Shown: positions 42,380 to 49,284 of the stretch, piece after piece
Layout: each line of letters begins with the position of its first letter
Numbering within the stretch: position 1 is the stretch's first letter
Source of the DNA: an uncultured Spirochaetota bacterium
GTDB lineage: Bacteria > Spirochaetota > Spirochaetia > SZUA-6 > CAVTHK01
DNA length: 64,000 nt
Reading direction: 5' to 3'
NCBI GenBank assembly: GCA_963734495.1
Contig: CAVTHK010000002.1
Span: 32,001-96,000, forward strand
Translations under genes and position numbers: made by a program
The notes under the pieces: model-generated
Told to the model about the DNA's origin: nothing
What the model saw: only the letters and a program-made list of their open reading frames with translations
Database searches by the model: none

Positions 42380-43595
42380 CAGGCCCCTGCCTTCGGGCGC
42401 AGTCGCCCCCCGCGAGGGCGCGGCCTTCCCGGGCGCGCTCTCGGGGGGCGCGCCCGGCGCGGGCGGCGCCGTTGCGGGCGCCTCAGCCGGAACCACGTTC
42501 TGATAGTACGTCGGGTCCGCGCGCAGGAGCGCCGCCTTGAGCAGGCGCAGCCTCACCACCACGCTGCCCTGGTCCGCCGGGTACCAGAAGAAGCGGTGCC
42601 CGTCGTTTCTCCAGTAGCGCGGCTCGACCTCCCCCCTGAACGGCGGCCTCACCTGCTGCAGCCACTTCAACGAGGGATCGCGCAGGGTCGCCTTCGGATT
42701 CTCGAACCGTATGACCGAGTCGTGGACCCCGCGCTCGTCCGCGGGCGCCCAGTCGGTCGACTGCACGTAGCGGATCGCGCCGGTTCCCAGGTCGATGGAC
42801 TGGATGACGGCCGAGTGCTTGAACGTACCGTCCGTGCCGCGGAACAGGATGATGTCGCCCGGCCTCAGGTCCTCTATCCGCTCGCTCGTGACCTCGGTGT
42901 ACCGGTTGCGGGGGTCGAGGAACGACAACCCGACGTACTGCGCGGCCCGCGACGGCGCCACGGCCCAGGCGCGCCCCAGCTCGACGTCCGCGTCGACCCC
43001 GTGCGCGAGCATCACCGCCTTCTCGATGTCGTAGACGAACCCCGCGCAATCGACCCCGAGGCCGGCGACCGCGTACAGGTAGTTGTAGACGTCGGTCTGG
43101 CTCACCGTGCCGCCGAAGCGCAGCACATGGACGCGCGTCTCCGTGCCGGGGTAGGGCCCCATCTCGAGCAGCCCGAGGAGCTTGGGGTCGTACGAGACGG
43201 TGTAGCCGCGCCGCTCGAGGTCGAAGATCACCGCCTGCTCCCGCGGCTCCATCAGCCGCGTCACGTACGCGCGGAACGCGTCGGAGGCCAGGACGGCGTC
43301 GATCAGGGGCCAGAGCTGCTCGGGGGCGCCTTTGGCTCCGAGCACGAACTCCTGCGTGTAGCCGGGCGTGCCTTCGCGCTCGCCGTTCATCCCGAAGGGC
43401 ATGCGCAGGGTCATCGCCTGGCCGCCGATGCGATAGAGCTTGAAGAACCTGCGATACGCGGTATCGATCAGCCGCTCGACGGTCGCCTCGACGGGCCCCT
43501 TGACCCGCGCGGGCGCCGGGGCGGCGGGGGCGTCGGCCTCCAGTCGAGCGAGCAGCAGCAGGCTCGAAAGCCAGCCTGCCGAAGGTGCGCAGCAT
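42287..43595 (-). CDS. Probably secreted protein with NlpC/P60-like domain (frameshift near the start ~43570; 3' end overlaps the convergent gene)
   Basis: GLGVDCAGFV and DLRPGDIILF...HSAV match the NlpC/P60 Cys/His motifs; RBS GGAGAAGG before ATG 43595. Confidence 0.6.
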
Positions 43596-43867
43596 GCCTT
43601 CTCCCGTGGCGCGATTATGCCCGCCGCCGCCGCGCGCGTCCACAGGCCGGGACGGGCCGGAACGTTGCCGCCGGCGCCGCGAATGGTGTTGACCGCGCCT
43701 GACGGGCAAAGATACCTTACAAACCTGAGGGGAGAACGCCGGGCTGCGCCCGGGCCGGCCTGACAGGCGGCCCGGCCGGGGTATGCCCGGCGGAGCCCCT
43801 CGATACCAGCAGGCCTGGCCTCGACGGCCGGGCAGCCTCGCCCCGGGCGGCCAGGCAGGGAGGCACT

Positions 43868-44782
43868 ATGCCGGCACGATCCAGCTGGAAAGGATTCCTC
43901 AAGCTCAGCCTGGTCTCGGTCCCGGTCAAGGCTTACACCGCCAACGCCACCGGAAGCGAGATCACGCTGCACCAGCTTCACTCCAAGTCCCACACCCGGA
44001 TCCAGTACAAGAAGGTCGCGCCCGGGGTGGGGGAGGTGGGCGCCGAGGAGATCGTCAAGGGCTACGAGTACGCCAAGGGCCAGTACGTGGTCATCGACGA
44101 CGACGAGCTCGACAAGCTGCGCACGGAGAGCGACAAGTCCGTGCGCATCGACGGGTTCATCAAGCCGCAGCAGGTCGACGGCATCTACTACGGGGGCCGC
44201 ACCTACTACCTCACGCCGGACGGGGCGGTGGGGCAGAAGCCCTACACGCTCCTGCTGCGGAGCATGGAGGCCAACGGGGTCTGCGCGATCGCCGAAGTCG
44301 TGATCTCCCAGAGGGAGCAGGTGGTGCTGCTGCGGCCGGTGGACGGCGTGCTCGCCATGACGGTGCTGAACCGGCACGACCAGGTCAAGCTGGCGTCGGC
44401 CTTTAAGGATGAGATCCAGGAGAGCCCCGCCACCGAAGCCGAAGTGGCGCTCACAAACACGCTCATCAACGCTTCGATGATCCAGAGCTTCGACTTCGCG
44501 CGCTATCGCGACACCTACAAGGACAAGCTCACCAAGCTGATCCAGCTCAAGGTCGAAGGGCAGGAGATCGTGCAGGTGCACGATCCGGAGGAGCCCAAGA
44601 TCATCAACCTCATGGAGGCGCTCAAGCGCAGCGTCGCGGAGGCGCAGGCCGCGGGCGCGGCCCGGGAGGCCGGAGGCAACGGCAGCTCGAGCGAGGCGGA
44701 CAAGGCCGACCTCAAGCAGGCGCCCAGCGCAAAGGCGCGGAAGACCACGCAGACCACGCAGAAGAAGAGGAAAGTTGGATAG
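43868..44782 (+). CDS. ku: NHEJ DNA end-binding protein Ku
   Basis: RSSWKG.L..SLVSVPVK.Y, RIQYKK, EIVKGYEY.KGQYV, YYLTPD, YRDTY...L..LI..K, IINLMEALKRS, basic C-terminal tail. Confidence 0.95.
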   Translation: MPARSSWKGFLKLSLVSVPVKAYTANATGSEITLHQLHSKSHTRIQYKKVAPGVGEVGAEEIVKGYEYAKGQYVVIDDDELDKLRTESDKSVRIDGFIKPQQVDGIYYGGRTYYLTPDGAVGQKPYTLLLRSMEANGVCAIAEVVISQREQVVLLRPVDGVLAMTVLNRHDQVKLASAFKDEIQESPATEAEVALTNTLINASMIQSFDFARYRDTYKDKLTKLIQLKVEGQEIVQVHDPEEPKIINLMEALKRSVAEAQAAGAAREAGGNGSSSEADKADLKQAPSAKARKTTQTTQKKRKVG

Positions 44783-45737
44783 AGCAGGCGGCGACCGGCT
44801 CCCGCGGTTCATCCCGCCGATGCTCGCCGTCCTCGGCGAGCCGTTCGATTCCGAGGAGCACCTGTACGAGGTCAAGTGGGACGGCATTCGCGCGCTCGCC
44901 CTGGTCGAGCGCGGCGGGCTGCGCCTGCTCAGCCGAAACGAGCAGCCCCTCGCGTCCCGCTACCCGGAGCTGGCGGAGCTGTCCGCGCTCCGCCCCGGGG
45001 TGGCGCTCGACGGCGAGATCGTGGCGCTCCGCGACGGCAAGCCCGACTTCAACGCGGTCCTGCGGCGCGGGGGCCTGGGCAGGGGCAAGCGATGGGGTCC
45101 GCCCGAGTCGTCCGGCCGGGATGCGGCCGGCGACGCCCCGGTGACGTACGTAGCCTTCGACATCCTCTACAAGGACCACGGGACGCTGATGCCGCTCCCG
45201 CTCGAGGAGCGGCGCAAGCACCTCGAGGAGCTGCTCGCGCCCGCGATCTCGCCGCGGCTCGTGCTCTCGGAGGGCGTGCGCGGGGCCGGGACCGCGCTCT
45301 ACCGCGAGGTCTGTGAAAAAGGGCTCGAAGGCGTCGTCGCCAAACGGCTTGCGAGCGCCTACGCGCCGGGCAAACGCAACGGCGCCTGGGTCAAGATCAA
45401 GCGCCGCCTCCGCGCGGTCTGCCTGGTCATCGGGTTCCTGGAGAAAGAAGGCCGCGACTTCCAGTGCCTCCTGGTGGCCACGAACCAGGTCCCGGGCGCC
45501 GATCCCGAGCCCGGCCCGCTGCGTTACGTGGGCCGGGTGGGCGGAGGGTTCAGCGAGGCCGTGCGGCGGCGGGTCAACGAGCTGATCTGGCCGCGGATCG
45601 TCCGCTCGCCGATCGTCCCCTGCCCCGAGCGGGGCGTGTGGATTGAAGCGGCCCTGTTTTGTACTGTAAGCTTCGCCGAGCTCACCGAGGCCGGCCTGCT
45701 GCGGGCCCCGGTGTTCGAAGGACTGGTCGAAGCGTAA
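44775..45737 (+). CDS. Stand-alone ATP-dependent DNA ligase (LigD ligase-domain/LigC type), catalytically intact
   Basis: PPMLA; motif I EVKWDGIR, III LDGEIV, IIIa AFDIL, IV EGVVAKR, V WVKIK; OB fold YVGRVGGGF...LRAPVF. Confidence 0.92.
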   Translation: MDRAGGDRLPRFIPPMLAVLGEPFDSEEHLYEVKWDGIRALALVERGGLRLLSRNEQPLASRYPELAELSALRPGVALDGEIVALRDGKPDFNAVLRRGGLGRGKRWGPPESSGRDAAGDAPVTYVAFDILYKDHGTLMPLPLEERRKHLEELLAPAISPRLVLSEGVRGAGTALYREVCEKGLEGVVAKRLASAYAPGKRNGAWVKIKRRLRAVCLVIGFLEKEGRDFQCLLVATNQVPGADPEPGPLRYVGRVGGGFSEAVRRRVNELIWPRIVRSPIVPCPERGVWIEAALFCTVSFAELTEAGLLRAPVFEGLVEA

Positions 45738-45740
45738 GCG

Positions 45741-46908
45741 ATGGAGGGCAACGATTCTCTTGCCGGCCGCGAGCTGGCGTTCACGGGTCGCCTCGTGTCC
45801 ATGACCCGGGCGGAGGCGATCGAGCGGCTCGCGCGAGCGGGGGCCCGGTGCGTCCGGACGCCCACCGAGTCGACCGACCTGCTGGTCGCCGGTCAGGCGA
45901 GGGGGCCGCTCCTCGAGGACGGCGGCCTCGCGGGCAACCTGGCCCGCTTCCGCGAGCTCAAGGAAGACGGAGCTTCGATCCGGCTCATCGAGGAGACCGA
46001 GCTCCTGCGGCTGCTCGGCGTCCCGGAGGAGATCGAGGACTTCACCCGGCTCTACACCACTGTGCAGGTCAGCCGCATCGTCGACGCGCCGCTCTCCGAA
46101 GTGCGCGGGTGGCTGCGCAACGGCCTGATCCAGCCCGCCCGCGTAGCCAAGCGCCTCGCGTGGTTCGAGTTCCGCGACATCGTCCACGCCCGCTCGCTCA
46201 GCCGCCTCGCGGCGTCGGGGATCCCGGCCGCGCGCATCCGGCGCAGCCTGGGCGAGATCTCGCGGTGGCTTCCCGACGCGGACCGGATGATCGGCCGCAT
46301 CGAGGCCTACGACCGGCGGCTGCGGGTGCGCCTGCAGGGCGGGGGCTGGGCGGAGCCGAGCGGCCAGATGCTGCTGGATTTCGCGGCCGAGCGCGGCGGC
46401 GAATCGCGCGTGGCCGTTTTCCCGCGCGGGCAACGCGGAAGCGCGGCTCGACACCGCGCCCTGGTTCTACCAGGGCGTCGCAGCCGAGGAGCGCGGCGAC
46501 CTGGAGGGCGCGGCCGAAGCGTACCGGCGCGCCGCCGGCGCCGTCCCGGAGCCCGAGACGTGCTTCAACCTCGGCAACGTTCTCTACGACCTCGGCCGCG
46601 AGGTCGAGGCCGCCGAGCGGTACCTGCAGGCGATCGAAGCGGACCGCGACTTCGCCGAGGCCTGGAACAACCTCGGCAACTCGATGGCCGCCCTGGGAAA
46701 GCTGGAGGACGCGGTGCACGCCTACGAGACGGCGCTGGCGCTCGAGCCCGCGTATGCGGACGCGCACTGCAACCTCGCGGCCGTGCTGGAGCGGCTCGGC
46801 CGGCCGGCGCAGGCGCTCGAGCACAGGGCCTCTTGCGAGAAAGCCTACCCGACGCGGCGGCACCTCGAGCTGCTGCACGGCGGAGCTGCGGACGAGGGCG
46901 AGGAGTAG
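45741..46908 (+). CDS. BRCT - MerR-type HTH - TPR multidomain protein (frameshift ~46435)
   Basis: BRCT: LAGRELAFTGRL.SMTR.EA...L...GA......TDLLVAG...IRLIEE.ELLRLLG; MerR HTH: YTTVQVSRIV......VRGW.RNGLI.P...F.FRD; TPRs: FNLGNVLY.LG, AWNNLG, YADAHCNLA. Confidence 0.8.
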
Positions 46909-46926
46909 GCGGCTCTTCCGGGGCGG

Positions 46927-48943
46927 CTACAGGTACCTGCTCAGCGCCGCAATGGCGGGCGCAAGGTCCTGCGGCTTCGAGAGCGAGGGCCGGAACAGGT
47001 CGCCCGTGCGCTCGACGCGGGCGGGCGCGTTGGCGAGCGTGAAGTCCGCGACGCGGAAGTCGCTTTCGAGCTCGTCCCACTGCAGCGGCATCGAGACGGA
47101 GGCTGCTTCCACCGGGCGCACCACGTAAGGCGGCACGACGGTCTGCTCCCGCCTGTTCTGCAGGAAATCGACGTAGACCTTGCCCTCGCGCCGGCCGATC
47201 ACGCGCTCGACCGTGGCGATGTCGCCGTGGTCGCGCACCAGCAGGCGCGCGACGGCTTCCGAGAACATGCGGCTCTGCTCGTACGTGTAGCCCGGCGCGA
47301 GCGGGATGAACACGTGAAGCCCCGATGAGCCCGACGTCTTCAGGAACGGCTCCAGCCCGAGCCCGCGCAGAAGCTTGCCCGCCTCCCGCGCGATCTTGAT
47401 CACGCTCGAAAAGGGAGCGTCCTTGGGGTCGAGGTCGAGGACGGCCCAGTCGGGCGAGTCGAGGCTTCCGCGACGGGAAAACCAGGGGTGAAGGTCGATG
47501 CTCCCCAGGTTGATCAGGTGCAGCAGGGTGCGCCGGTCGTTGCAGACGATGTAGCGCGCCGGCTCCTCTCCCTCGCGGGCCACGTCGGCCGTCTCGACCC
47601 AGTCGGGCAGGCCGTCGGGGAGCGCCTTCTGATAGAAGGACTTGCCGCGGATCCCGTCGGGCCAGCGGTACATGTGCAGCGGCCGCTCCCGCAGGTACGG
47701 CAGGATGTGGTCGGCGATCCGGTCGTAGTACGCGTACAGGTCCGCCTTGGTGTAGCCCTGCTCCGGCCAGTACACCTTTCGGGGATTCGTGAGGGGCGAC
47801 GGCGCGGGCGCTGCCGCCGCGCGGAGCGCGGCCTTTGTCCGCTTGCGTCCCGTGACGGCGATGAGCCGCCAGTCTTCGGAGCGTCCCGCGCGATACGGGC
47901 TTTCGGCGCGCTTGGCGACGATCGCCGGCAGCCCCGCTCCTGCGGCCGCTTCGGCGAGCTCCGCCCCTCGCTCGGCAATCGGGTCGACCGGCAGCACGTG
48001 AGGCAGCTCCGGAAGCAGGTTGCGCAGGGCGGCCTTTCGCTCCCGCAGCGGCAGCCCGCGCAGGTCCCACTCCTCGGCGTAGAGCACGTCGTAGAGGTAG
48101 AGCAGGATGCCCTGCCCGTCGCCCGCGAGCCTGGCGTCGAGGGCCTCGCGGGAGGGGCGGCCTTGGGCATCGAGGGCGACGAGGACGCCGTCGAGGAGCG
48201 CCGTCTCGGCCCGGACGGACTCGAGCTCCTTGACGATGCGCGGCAGGAGCGGCGCCAGGTCCTCCTTGTCCGCGCTGAGGCTCGGCGCTCGACCCTTCGA
48301 TCGCCGCGAGCACCCTCCTCCCGACAAAGCCGGGCTCGAACATCCAGGCGGGGTCGGAGAAGGGCTCGAAGCCCTCCGCCGGCTCCATCAAGCCGGGCTT
48401 GCGGGGGGCCGGCGCGCGCCGCGCCCGCGAGAGGTCGACGCCGGCGAACAGGTCGCTGCCCGAGCCCGCGTAGCGGTCGCGCGCCTTGAAGAGCAGCCAG
48501 TCCCGGCCGCCTTCGCGCTTCGTCTGCACGAGGTGCCACTCCCCGCGCAGCCGGCGGCCCTTGAGCACGAGCTTGAGCTCCCCTTCGGCAAGGGCCTGGG
48601 TGACGTCCTTGCTCCGGAGCAGCTCGTAGTCCCCCGTGTCCCAGATCTGCATGGTACCCGCGCCGTACTCGCCCGTGGGGATGACGCCGGAGAAGGTCTC
48701 GTACTCGAGGGGGTGGTCTTCGGTGCGGACCGCGAGCCGCTTGTCCGCGGGGTCGTACGAGAAGCCTTTGGGCACCGCGAACGAGGCGAGGGCTTCGCCC
48801 GCCACGAAGCGGAAATCGTAGTGAAGCCGGCGCGCCTCGTGGCGGTGCACGACGAAGACCGGCCGGAGCCGCTGCTCCGCGGCCGGCTCCGGCTCGGGCG
48901 TCCTCGAGAAATCGCGCTTGCGTTTGTATTCCGCGGTCCCCAT
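46927..48943 (-). CDS. ligD: LigD-like protein: phosphoesterase - degenerate ligase - primase/polymerase (frameshift ~48290)
   Basis: PE: YKRKRDF..TPEP, HEARRLHYDFR, AVPKG, EDHPLEY, GEYGAG; POL: LTNPRKV, TKADL..YY, RWPDG, FYQK, DLDP, KTSG..GLH, VDFLQN; the middle domain is ligase-like but lacks KxDG. Confidence 0.9.
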
Positions 48944-49035
48944 GGCCGCGGTCAATGTAACCGCCGGATGAGCGCGTTTCCAAGCGGGAACCCGGGCTTG
49001 ATCACCGCCCCGTCGCTGCGCTATCTTCTGAGGCG

Positions 49036-49284
49036 ATGCCGATCTACGAGTACATGTGCCGCGAGTGCGGCACTCGCAACGAGTTCCTCGAAGGCGTGAC
49101 CAGCGAGAAGGTGGACAAGGTCTGCTCCGAGTGCGGGAGCGGCGATCTCACCAAGCTGATTTCGATGGCGGCCTTTACCGTCGCCGGCGGCCATTCGTCG
49201 GCCGAGGGCGCCTGCGCCTGCGGCCACGAAGGCCACGGTCCCGAAGGCGGCTGCTGCGGCGGGGACTGCGCCTGCAACAACTGA
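49036..49284 (+). CDS. FmdB family zinc-ribbon protein
   Basis: MPIYEY.C..CG...E...C..CGS..L.KLIS; Cys-rich tail. Confidence 0.88.
   Translation: MPIYEYMCRECGTRNEFLEGVTSEKVDKVCSECGSGDLTKLISMAAFTVAGGHSSAEGACACGHEGHGPEGGCCGGDCACNN

Follow-up and report, generated by a model that had tools for sequence, protein, structure and literature searches.

In teaching and engineering alike, bacterial end joining (NHEJ) is treated as a system of two proteins, Ku and LigD. The window analysed here, a stretch of 64,000 nt from an uncultured Spirochaetota bacterium, harbors ku, a stand-alone ligase gene and ligD, and between the ligase gene and ligD lies a further gene for a protein that combines a BRCT domain, a MerR-type winged HTH and TPRs. 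Is the product of this gene a third partner in end joining, a regulator of its neighbours or a passenger? Our main reading, to which we assign a probability of about 0.5, is that the BRCT-MerR-TPR protein is a conserved accessory factor of bacterial NHEJ that acts as a scaffold and not as an enzyme. The following features of the window are considered:

43689..43718, + strand: probable promoter of the ku operon (TTGACC and TACCTT, separated by an 18-nt spacer), found by a regex scan, 179 nt before the ku ATG
43868..44782, + strand: ku (304 aa)
44775..45737, + strand: stand-alone ATP-dependent DNA ligase (320 aa) with nucleotidyltransferase and OB domains and an intact motif I (EVKWDGIR)
45741-46908, + strand: BRCT-MerR-TPR gene as a whole, encoding the BRCT, the MerR-type winged helix and four TPRs in two frames
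45741..46430, + strand: first frame of this gene (residues 1-230) with BRCT, winged HTH, small beta segment and linker
45750..46034, + strand: BRCT domain (residues 4-98) of the RFC1/LigA class, from profile and fold matches
46047..46310, + strand: MerR-type winged HTH (residues 103-190), nearest to the minimal GlnR/TnrA type by profile, fold and charge
46317..46382, + strand: conserved beta segment RLRVRLQGGGWAEPSGQMLLDF, with G208 in 39/40 and Q209 in 40/40 sequences from three phyla
46428-46430, + strand: frame break, a GGG run at which the reading frame shifts by +1, placed by the switch of the match to the intact homologue P0001 between frames
46429..46908, + strand: second frame of the gene with linker, four TPRs with capping helix, and acidic tail
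46465-46863, + strand: four TPRs plus capping helix in the +1 frame (Pfam TPR_2)
46906-46908, + strand: TAG stop of the second frame
46927..48955, - strand: convergent LigD gene with 3'-phosphoesterase, degenerate ligase-like domain and primase-polymerase

An earlier note, made from the sequence alone, had linked the gene to end joining, and this link received strong support from comparative genomics. The neighbouring genes are a genuine ku and those of a ligase of NHEJ type and of LigD. The Ku protein matched Pfam Ku at 7.4e-44 and TIGR02772 with 256 bits (cut-off 150). The stand-alone ligase matched Pfam DNA_ligase_A_M (4.2e-30) and DNA_ligase_A_C (1.2e-12), and its 217.7 bits for TIGR02779 were just below the cut-off of 227.75. 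The ku and ligase genes overlap by 8 nt, the gap between the ligase gene and the BRCT-MerR-TPR gene is 3 nt, all three have the same orientation, and no terminator-like site was seen in 43500-47100. The three genes are probably co-transcribed. LigD matched LigD_Prim-Pol at 9.1e-86 and LigD_N at 1.3e-39. Its ligase-like domain has a motif I without lysine (EPGFVGRR) and no OB domain, and an intact LigD orthologue (L024) reads ETSFTGRR at motif I. A separate +1 frame break interrupts the LigD gene, at a G/C triplet near 48294-48296.

Profile searches, which the earlier note had named as the check on an N-terminal ~95-aa BRCT of the NAD-ligase/RFC type and on a MerR-like winged HTH, were run and supported both domains, and the fold matches agreed. 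For the BRCT domain, the single window sequence scored just below the Pfam BRCT cut-off (17.6 versus 21.3 bits). The BRCT ends of the NCBIfam models PRK06195 (E 7e-10) and LigA (1.7e-5) matched residues ~4-98, and a 40-member family profile compared with the PDB matched the BRCT domains of RFC1 (5e-8) and E. coli LigA (7e-8). An AlphaFold model of the N-terminal 231 aa had a mean pLDDT of 81, with about 86-92 for residues 4-98. With this model, Foldseek returned LigA/RFC1 BRCT domains at 1.8e-4 to 6.3e-4 (9a6z_B, 8dr5, 2ebu, 2k7f), and VIA-align returned BRCT domains with Z 8.6-8.8 and an rmsd of 2.7-3.4 Å over 76-82 residues; among the VIA-align matches was chain B, which bears the BRCT, of the heterodimeric DNA ligase of phage PR1 on nicked DNA. 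The nearest sequence and fold matches of residues 4-98 were those of the single, DNA-binding BRCT class of RFC1, LigA and PARP1. Unlike in LigA and RFC1, the domain is located at the N-terminus of a non-enzymatic protein and is fused to an HTH and TPRs, and unlike the LigA domain it carries an insert of 10-15 residues (WPL..DG).

The phosphate pocket of RFC1 consists of T/S-G after strand 1, an Arg in helix 1 and a Lys after strand 3. In the family-profile alignment the T-G...R signature was aligned with ITG...ER of RFC1. G16, S20 and M21 were found in 40/40 family members, R17 in 39/40, R23 in 37/40 and T15 in 30/40, the last position being Ala in 9/40. The position of the pocket Lys, the third phosphate ligand of RFC1, falls within an insert and is not clearly conserved in the alignment. 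The member from Sinorhizobium meliloti has a degraded BRCT signature and gave neither a Pfam BRCT nor a MerR match, so BRCT end binding may not be general in the family. The BRCT of RFC1, taken on its own, is reported to bind DNA with a recessed 5'-phosphate at about 10 nM (PMC9293004).

The winged HTH exceeded the Pfam MerR_1 cut-off (26.9 versus 21.6 bits), with profile positions 1-66 of 69 covered. The family profile matched GlnR at 1.5e-7 and TnrA at 4e-6. By VIA-align, CvkR, TipAN, CbpM and TnrA spanned Z 8.0-8.7, with CvkR at 8.7 (rmsd 1.8 Å over 58 residues). In the window's clade the net charge of the HTH is +8 over 73 residues. Over the whole HTH it is +1.2 in Alphaproteobacteria (13 sequences) and -1.2 in a Phycisphaerae-like clade (4 sequences); helix 2 carries +2.2 in Spirochaetota, against -1.5 in Alphaproteobacteria and -0.5 in the Phycisphaerae-like clade, and in the latter two groups the wing is shorter by 5 residues. 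The basic DNA-reading helix and wing are thus present in the window's own clade and not conserved among orthologues. The long dimerisation coiled-coil helix was absent in both models; they show a helix of only 7-13 residues (180-186 or 180-192), after which come short strands and a linker without order. The strands of the beta segment had a pLDDT of 84-88 in the N-terminal model and of <50 in the full-length model. GlnR and TnrA have a winged HTH of the same topology, likewise without a long coiled coil and with a partner-binding C-terminal part. They differ in that here the HTH lies between a BRCT and TPRs, the promoter of ku has a spacer of 17-18 bp, and helix and wing are not kept as DNA readers throughout the family. 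CbpM is an example of a MerR-fold protein that binds proteins.

An operon-embedded HTH-plus-TPR protein can equally be a regulator, which speaks against the scaffold. The protein would then be a transcription factor controlling the end-joining operon, a repressor or activator of the MerR/GlnR type that is modulated via the TPRs by a protein or peptide ligand, or via the BRCT by sensing of DNA ends. The MerR_1 score, the strong basic charge of the HTH in the window's clade and the fact that its nearest solved relatives are true regulators (GlnR, TnrA, CvkR, BmrR, SoxR) argue for such a function, as does a weak NCBIfam match (E 0.013) to the MerR-type heat-shock repressor HspR. HTH plus TPR is also a known regulator layout: the RRNPP-type regulators likewise combine an N-terminal HTH with TPR repeats behind it in a single chain. 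In those proteins the HTH is of the XRE type and 5-9 TPRs serve to bind a cognate peptide, whereas our protein has a MerR-type HTH and a BRCT in front.

The promoter of ku did not fit this alternative. MerR-controlled promoters typically have a 19-20 bp spacer, within which a dyad operator is located. The pattern TTGAC[ACT]-N17/18-TAnnnT was found upstream of ku in 20/22 Spirochaetota loci, with a spacer of 17 nt in 15 loci and 18 nt in 5, and none of the Spirochaetota ku promoters examined had the 19-20 bp MerR-type spacer. The spacers were neither conserved nor palindromic (≤3 of 8-9 symmetric pairs). A stricter consensus promoter scan did not list 43689..43718, and the inverted repeats upstream of ku were only GC-rich pairs as expected at 72% G+C, none of them conserved in relatives. 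Further points against a regulator are the lack of the long dimerisation helix behind the HTH in both models and the acidic or neutral helix 2 and the shorter wing in Alphaproteobacteria and the Phycisphaerae-like clade. Since the charge of helix and wing differs between clades, operator reading by helix 2 is not a conserved property of the family. In addition, the gene is last or mid-operon and translationally coupled, while genes of MerR-type regulators tend to be divergent or to come first. We consider regulation of the operon rather unlikely. The earlier note had left open an adaptor or a damage-responsive regulator; the adaptor fits better with the BRCT class, the operon embedding and a motif in the Ku tail, and the regulator is weakened by the spacers, the missing dimerisation helix and the acidic HTH.

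The about four TPRs that had been read past the frameshift were borne out, as Pfam TPR_2 matched 4 stretches in the +1 frame (E 3e-24). A model of the intact homologue showed nine helices at residues 240-380. When the full-length model was used in Foldseek, the matches were consensus TPR proteins, with a target-normalised TM-score of up to 0.94, and the TPR domain of OGT; this search returned TPR proteins only, and the BRCT and HTH matches came from the N-terminal part folded alone. The TPR part is 36% identical to designed consensus repeats.

A candidate ligand of the TPRs, recognised by sequence comparison, is the motif K-[KQ]-x-A-[PA]-S in the C-terminal tail of Ku. The tail of the window Ku contains KQAPSAK and ends with KKRKVG, and the motif is common to the Ku proteins linked to a BRCT-MerR-TPR gene. 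A[PA]S was present within the last 60 residues in 48/54 of these linked Ku proteins, and A281 and S283 of the tail were kept in at least 90% of them across three phyla; the linked alphaproteobacterial proteins contained KKPAAAS in 9/9 cases. Of 27 Ku proteins without the gene in the locus, only 3 had any A[PA]S, and none had it in the arrangement of the linked proteins. The linked Ku proteins form a clade, and a clade-specific tail motif would track the gene even without contact. A complex prediction for the Ku dimer and the full-length protein, made for one genome with 54-row alignments, gave a score of 0.30 (mark, 0.32) and speaks neither for nor against a contact. The tail motif is short, and Ala, Pro and Ser abound in the tails of Ku.

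The BRCT-MerR-TPR gene of the window is split over two frames. The earlier note had put a frameshift near 46435, and the match to P0001 (389 aa) in both frames placed the break at the GGG run 46428-46430. The first-frame part is 93% identical to P0001 over 230 residues, up to ...FPRG, and the second-frame part is 89% identical to residues 222-389. Deleting one G at 46428-46430 gives ...FPRGNAEARLDTAPWF..., collinear with P0001. Intact homologues of ~390 aa in one frame exist, the closest being 93% identical, and both gene parts share one frame in 73/80 homologous loci; programmed +1 frameshifting was rejected on the basis of this count.

The break may be genuine. In this case the gene would be a recent pseudogene or encode a truncated BRCT-HTH protein followed by a 200-residue out-of-frame tail, LigD would be broken likewise, and the end-joining locus would be decaying. 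The break is indeed present in the deposited sequence, LigD is broken as well, and short proteins with only BRCT and HTH (about 170-280 aa) occur in databases. However, both halves are otherwise intact, in proper frames without stops, and each of the two breaks is a single extra base in a G/C triplet, the removal of which restores collinearity with the orthologues. At 48296 a short-read contig of a 91%-alike relative has exactly one base fewer. Internal breaks were found in 5/80 loci, all 5 from one assembly series (26 loci, by record titles), and 0/52 other complete loci had a break in the BRCT-MerR-TPR gene. This confinement to one series is the pattern expected of a sequencing-method error. 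We therefore consider real decay of the gene unlikely and an assembly error probable, also because the adjoining LigD carries the same kind of break. It follows that the organism probably makes a full protein of the 389-aa type. No sequencing run compared with the window matched more than a 0.14 share of its sampled words, and RNA runs were absent from the matches. Contigs of four sequencing runs aligned to the stretch only as short pieces of relatives, and none spans 46428-46430 cleanly. Indels at 46403-46416 were seen in single low-depth contigs from other strains.

The gene belongs to a large family, with 3430 representatives at E≤1e-3, 838 at ≤1e-10 and 267 at ≤1e-30. Among 150 matches listed, most comprised the whole BRCT+HTH module and had a length of about 360-460 aa. 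The family is associated with ku in three phyla by gene order and by presence and absence. Among the loci of 12 relatives, ku was present in 10 and a ligase in 11. In a set of 80 loci, ku was located within 8 kb of the BRCT-MerR-TPR gene in 72 (24/28 in Spirochaetota, 10/13 in Planctomycetota, 35/36 in Alphaproteobacteria and 3/3 unclassified), and only 3/80 loci, all from Planctomycetota (L056, L062, L086), had no end-joining gene within this distance; these and the following counts come from related genomes, which are not independent samples. Three arrangements keep ku and the gene (X) together, namely ku-lig-X with convergent ligD, ku-X, and ku-X-ligD. In the 41 genomes of the window's order, the gene occurred in 13, ku in 12 and both in 12. 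None of the 28 genomes without the gene had ku, so that presence and absence agreed in 40/41, and in the one genome with the gene but without ku the gene was at a contig end. In an alphaproteobacterial family (121 genomes), ku occurred in 103 and matches extending past the BRCT in 14, one of them partial with an internal stop. All 14 carriers had ku, at a distance of 0.1-1.9 kb in 12. About 89 of the 103 ku-bearing genomes of this family lack the BRCT-MerR-TPR gene, so that end joining as such does not require it.

That the protein is a general TPR/HTH protein with a job unrelated to end joining, carried along with ku in a mobile or co-inherited block, is very improbable: the three Planctomycetota loci without an end-joining gene and the closeness of the TPR part to a generic consensus would agree with it, but the ku link persists over three gene orders and three phyla, presence and absence follow ku in the window's order and in all 14 alphaproteobacterial-family carriers ku is present, and PADLOC gave only weak matches, one of the HTH, of a generic kind, to mad1 and one of the TPR part.

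How could the BRCT-MerR-TPR protein act as a scaffold? The BRCT belongs to the class that binds 5'-phosphorylated ends and nicks and may grip the broken end or a nick; the winged helix, which is strongly basic in this lineage of spirochaetes, would add duplex binding there. The four-repeat TPR domain would hold a partner, the likeliest ligand being the K-[KQ]-x-A-[PA]-S motif that the product of the upstream ku gene carries in its disordered C-terminal tail. LigD of this lineage appears to lack the ligase lysine and the OB domain, and sealing would be left to the bare stand-alone ligase, and the scaffold would help to gather Ku, DNA end and ligase and may in this way affect repair. A more specific version is tentative. 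It proposes a three-part end-joining machine in which the TPRs dock on the Ku-tail motif, the BRCT (together with the basic winged helix in spirochaetes) clamps the 5'-phosphate end, and the ligase is recruited or positioned; such a machine would be a prokaryotic counterpart of XRCC1/XRCC4-type scaffolds. The BRCT domains of XRCC1, Lig4 and Pol mu were among the fold matches (Z 7.1-7.5 or Foldseek E 0.05), and in the eukaryotic scaffolds (XRCC1, Lig4 tandem BRCT with XRCC4, Pol lambda/mu BRCT with Ku) the BRCT is likewise a non-catalytic module associated with Ku and ligase. This likeness is an analogy alone, since the partners differ and there is no sequence kinship beyond the BRCT fold.

The canonical NHEJ of Mycobacterium, Bacillus, Pseudomonas and S. 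meliloti relies on a Ku homodimer and LigD, and the genes next to the BRCT-MerR-TPR gene are likewise ku, an NHEJ-type ligase and LigD. The window differs from the two-component system by the third conserved gene and by a spirochaete-lineage LigD with a ligase-like domain that is, judged by its motifs, probably dead, so that a separate ligase would perform the sealing. A full-text search found no literature on a BRCT-MerR-TPR protein in NHEJ; an early mention in a 2001 Ku comparative-genomics paper is possible. If true, a conserved third partner would change the view of how faithfully soil bacteria, planctomycetes and rhizobia repair breaks, how they choose ends and how they recruit the ligase. 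Such a partner would also show that bacteria, too, use a BRCT scaffold to repair double-strand breaks, and heterologous NHEJ toolkits for genome editing might gain from it.

The question is directly testable in S. meliloti, where the ku gene matching ku2 is immediately followed by a member of the family. Ku2/LigD2 is the principal end-joining pathway of this species, and plasmid-repair, I-SceI and irradiation assays are established (PMC6379672). Ectopic ku2 alone brought the repair of the ku2 mutant back to near wild type (PMC6379672), which shows that the defect lay in ku2 itself and is uninformative on the gene downstream. The regulation of ku2 was stated to be unknown (PMC6379672), and a scaffold or a regulator as the outcome would therefore alike fill a stated gap. 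Should the three-part machine exist, the gene behind ku2 would be a part that has escaped notice in the multi-Ku system studied best so far. The supplement of the same study names ligD2 (SMb20685) and ku2 (SMb20686), which have adjacent numbers, and the main text describes ku2 as downstream of ligD2 (PMC6379672). In S. meliloti 1021 the homologue is located on pSymB, directly behind the only ku that directly follows a ligD, and by this position and the locus tags of the supplement the pSymB ligD-ku pair matches the published ligD2-ku2. The homologue overlaps this ku by 1 nt.

The gene that we call X, which the earlier note described as a BRCT, MerR-like winged helix-turn-helix (HTH) and TPR protein, lies behind ku and a ligase in a locus with a G+C content of ~72% throughout:

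43868-44782, + strand: ku, the first of three consecutive genes
44775-45737, + strand: stand-alone ATP-dependent ligase, between ku and X
45741 (3 nt after the ligase) to the stop codon 46906-46908, + strand: X, in frame 0 and then in frame +1
46927-48955, - strand: LigD, convergent, its end 18 nt from the X stop

Just past the LigD start, a small Cys-rich ORF of 82 aa (49036-49284, + strand) carries 'CRECG...CSECG' followed by a C/G-rich tail and resembles a zinc-ribbon protein.

Pfam recognized MerR_1 in residues 105-170 of X (26.9 bits, cut-off 21.6), BRCT in residues 8-53 just under the cut-off (17.6 versus 21.3 bits), and TPR_2 in four stretches of the second frame (3e-24). By NCBIfam, residues 4-91 matched the BRCT end of PRK06195 (7e-10) and LigA (1.7e-5). 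A 40-member profile of X matched, among solved structures, the BRCT domains of RFC1 (5e-8) and E. coli LigA (7e-8) as well as GlnR (1.5e-7) and TnrA (4e-6). The N-terminal 231 residues of X, as encoded in the window, were modeled with AlphaFold (mean pLDDT 81), and Foldseek matched this model to the BRCT domains of LigA and RFC1 and to BmrR, GlnR, and RacA. In VIA-align, residues 4-98 aligned with BRCT domains (Z 8.6-8.8), including those of chain B of a phage heterodimeric ligase on nicked DNA and of the RFC p140-DNA model, and residues 103-190 aligned with MerR-fold proteins (Z 8.0-8.7). The full-length model of an intact homolog (pLDDT 80.5, pTM 0.75) showed nine helices, corresponding to four TPRs and a cap, and all its Foldseek matches were TPR proteins. 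Profile searches and models thus bore out the BRCT domain, the HTH, and the about four TPRs proposed earlier. At L022, a locus of the same order (G037:C1:3924581-3924949), X matches only from residue 99 on, with HTH and TPRs and no BRCT domain, and still lies directly behind ku and the ligase.

Frame 0 of X is sensible up to '...ESRVAVFPRG' and then continues into an Arg-rich nonsense tail, and frame +1 is sensible from ~46430 to the stop codon. The closest database homolog, P0001 (389 aa in a single frame), shares 93% identity with frame 0 in residues 1-230 and 89% identity with frame +1 in residues 222-389. The single frameshift, which had been estimated near 46435, could be placed at the GGG run 46428-46430; removal of one G makes the protein collinear with P0001. 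LigD has the same kind of defect: a surplus base within a G/C triplet (near 48294-48296) causes a +1 break that separates the phosphoesterase part from the remainder. One base fewer in this triplet gives the exact 16-residue spacing of the intact ortholog at the comparison locus L024, and a single short-read contig, from a relative that is 91% similar, is one base short at 48296. Of 80 homologous loci, 73 encode the BRCT-HTH and TPR parts in a single frame and two are truncated at contig ends; internal breaks occur in five, all of one assembly series by their record titles. The frame break in X is likely an assembly error, and X is probably intact in this genome.

X is a real member of a widespread uncharacterized family that is bound to ku. 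With the BRCT and HTH module as query, a search of 1.84 billion representative proteins gave 3430 matches at E≤1e-3, of which 838 reached 1e-10 and 267 reached 1e-30; the majority are 360-460 aa long and cover the module in full. Full-text search of literature other than a 2001 comparative-genomics study of prokaryotic Ku found no description of a BRCT-MerR-TPR protein. The 80 loci come from contigs of one genome per species, assigned by record title to Spirochaetota, Planctomycetota, and Alphaproteobacteria (for example Xanthobacteraceae); X has ku within 8 kb in 72 of them, and end-joining genes are wholly absent in only 3. Gene order depends on the lineage (ku-lig-X with convergent ligD, ku-X, ku-ligD-X, or ku-X-ligD), and ku and X remain together despite this. 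Among 41 genomes of the window's order, 13 have X, 12 have ku, and 12 have both, X lying at a contig end in the thirteenth, while ku is present in 0 of the 28 genomes without X; all ku/X counts in this paragraph overstate the statistical weight, related genomes not being independent samples. In 12 fetched X-bearing loci of this order, ku was present in 10 and the ligase in 11. One alphaproteobacterial family has ku in 103 of 121 genomes and X matches extending past the BRCT domain in 14 (one partial with an internal stop), plus five BRCT-only matches; each of the 14 carriers also has ku, in most cases at a distance of 0.1-1.9 kb. Since ku is common and X rarer in this family, X belongs to one Ku lineage as an optional accessory and is not a universal component. 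The occurrence in three phyla and three gene orders is a stronger argument for the link than the counts.

A tblastn search of plasmids identified full-length homologs in 90 records, including 78 Sinorhizobium megaplasmids; the annotation of these homologs goes no further than 'tetratricopeptide repeat protein'. One annotated megaplasmid record lists ligD, Ku protein, X, alpha/beta hydrolase, and exodeoxyribonuclease III, with a 1 nt overlap of X and ku. On an S. meliloti megaplasmid (L139:8085-9507), X is directly followed by a hydrolase of the Abhydrolase_11 type (5.4e-71) and by exodeoxyribonuclease III, which makes a five-gene cluster ligD-ku-X-hydrolase-xth in Sinorhizobium. pSymB of strain 1021 harbors three ku genes, two of them adjacent; the third lies directly behind a LigD polymerase domain, and the X homolog is next. 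In this species ku2 (SMb20686) is downstream of ligD2 (SMb20685), ku3-ku4 are SMb21406-21407 (supplement of PMC6379672), and Ku2/LigD2 form the principal pathway (PMC6379672). From the pSymB coordinates and these locus tags, we infer that the X homolog is the gene after ku2. The encoded protein aligns collinearly with P0001 (30% identity, E 5e-16). The 'GQ' segment and the TPRs, the latter its only Pfam matches, are retained, and the signatures of the BRCT domain and the HTH are eroded.

LigD of the spirochaete lineage consists of phosphoesterase, ligase-like domain, and polymerase (window 46927-48955; L024:9151-11175). Its ligase domain gave only a weak, partial Pfam match, motif I lacks the lysine ('EPGFVGRR' in the window, 'ETSFTGRR' in the intact L024 ortholog), and the OB domain is absent from both. 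The stand-alone ligase beside ku has an intact 'KWDG'. Judged by these motifs, sealing is probably delegated to the bare ligase, and the arrangement looks like a split or division of labor in bacterial end joining (NHEJ). An end-binding scaffold would be most useful in such a setting.

The otherwise variable tails of 54 X-adjacent Ku proteins carry K-[KQ]-x-A-[PA]-S at a conserved position, followed by a terminal [KR]K[KR]K.G. Spirochaetota have the motif as 'LKQAPSAK', Planctomycetota as 'KKMAPSAK', and Alphaproteobacteria as 'KKPAAAS', and A[PA]S occurs within the last 60 residues in 48 of the 54. Alphaproteobacterial Ku proteins without X in the locus have any A[PA]S in 3 of 27 cases and the motif arrangement in none of the 27. 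TPR domains typically bind short conserved peptides in disordered tails, and the motif is a candidate TPR ligand of X. Because Ku proteins linked to X form a clade, this is a lead that falls short of proof. Many Ku tails not linked to X (alphaproteobacterial loci L125-L132, L136, and L138) have 'GQKEMLLPI.GKK' between two basic stretches, which may be another partner-binding peptide distinguishing Ku paralogs.

The earlier note had offered a break-sensing adaptor or a regulator of the NHEJ genes. We consider an end-joining scaffold the most likely function of X (probability about 50%). Regulation is the main rival, and unlikely; it keeps some weight because HTH-TPR proteins are often regulators and the regulator of ku2 is stated to be unknown (PMC6379672). 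Against it, TTGAC[ACT]-N17/18-TAnnnT precedes ku in 20 of 22 Spirochaetota loci, including the window, and none of the spacers of these 20 promoters (17 nt in fifteen, 18 nt in five) is conserved or palindromic. MerR-controlled promoters typically have spacers of 19-20 bp with a dyad. The long MerR dimerization helix is absent from both the N-terminal and the full-length model. The net charge of the winged helix falls from +7.8 in Spirochaetota to +1.2 in Alphaproteobacteria and -1.2 in a Phycisphaerae-like clade, the latter two having a wing shorter by 5 residues and an acidic or neutral helix 2, while that of the BRCT domain shows the opposite trend (+1.8, +5.2, and +7.0). Some DNA affinity seems to be kept in the N-terminal half; to judge from these sequences, the family does not conserve sequence reading by the HTH. 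X is also last or mid-operon and tightly coupled to its neighbors. Promoter, dimerization, charge, and gene position together favor a structural role, so that the adaptor half of the earlier proposal is preferred.

Many Spirochaetota ku leaders contain a 'C..GGGAGGG' element ~10-15 nt past the -10 box (window 43719-43740; ku upstream regions of L024, L028, L031, L032, L041, and others). It is the ribosome-binding site of ku in some species and lies 80-100 nt upstream of ku elsewhere, a layout suggestive of an inserted leader.
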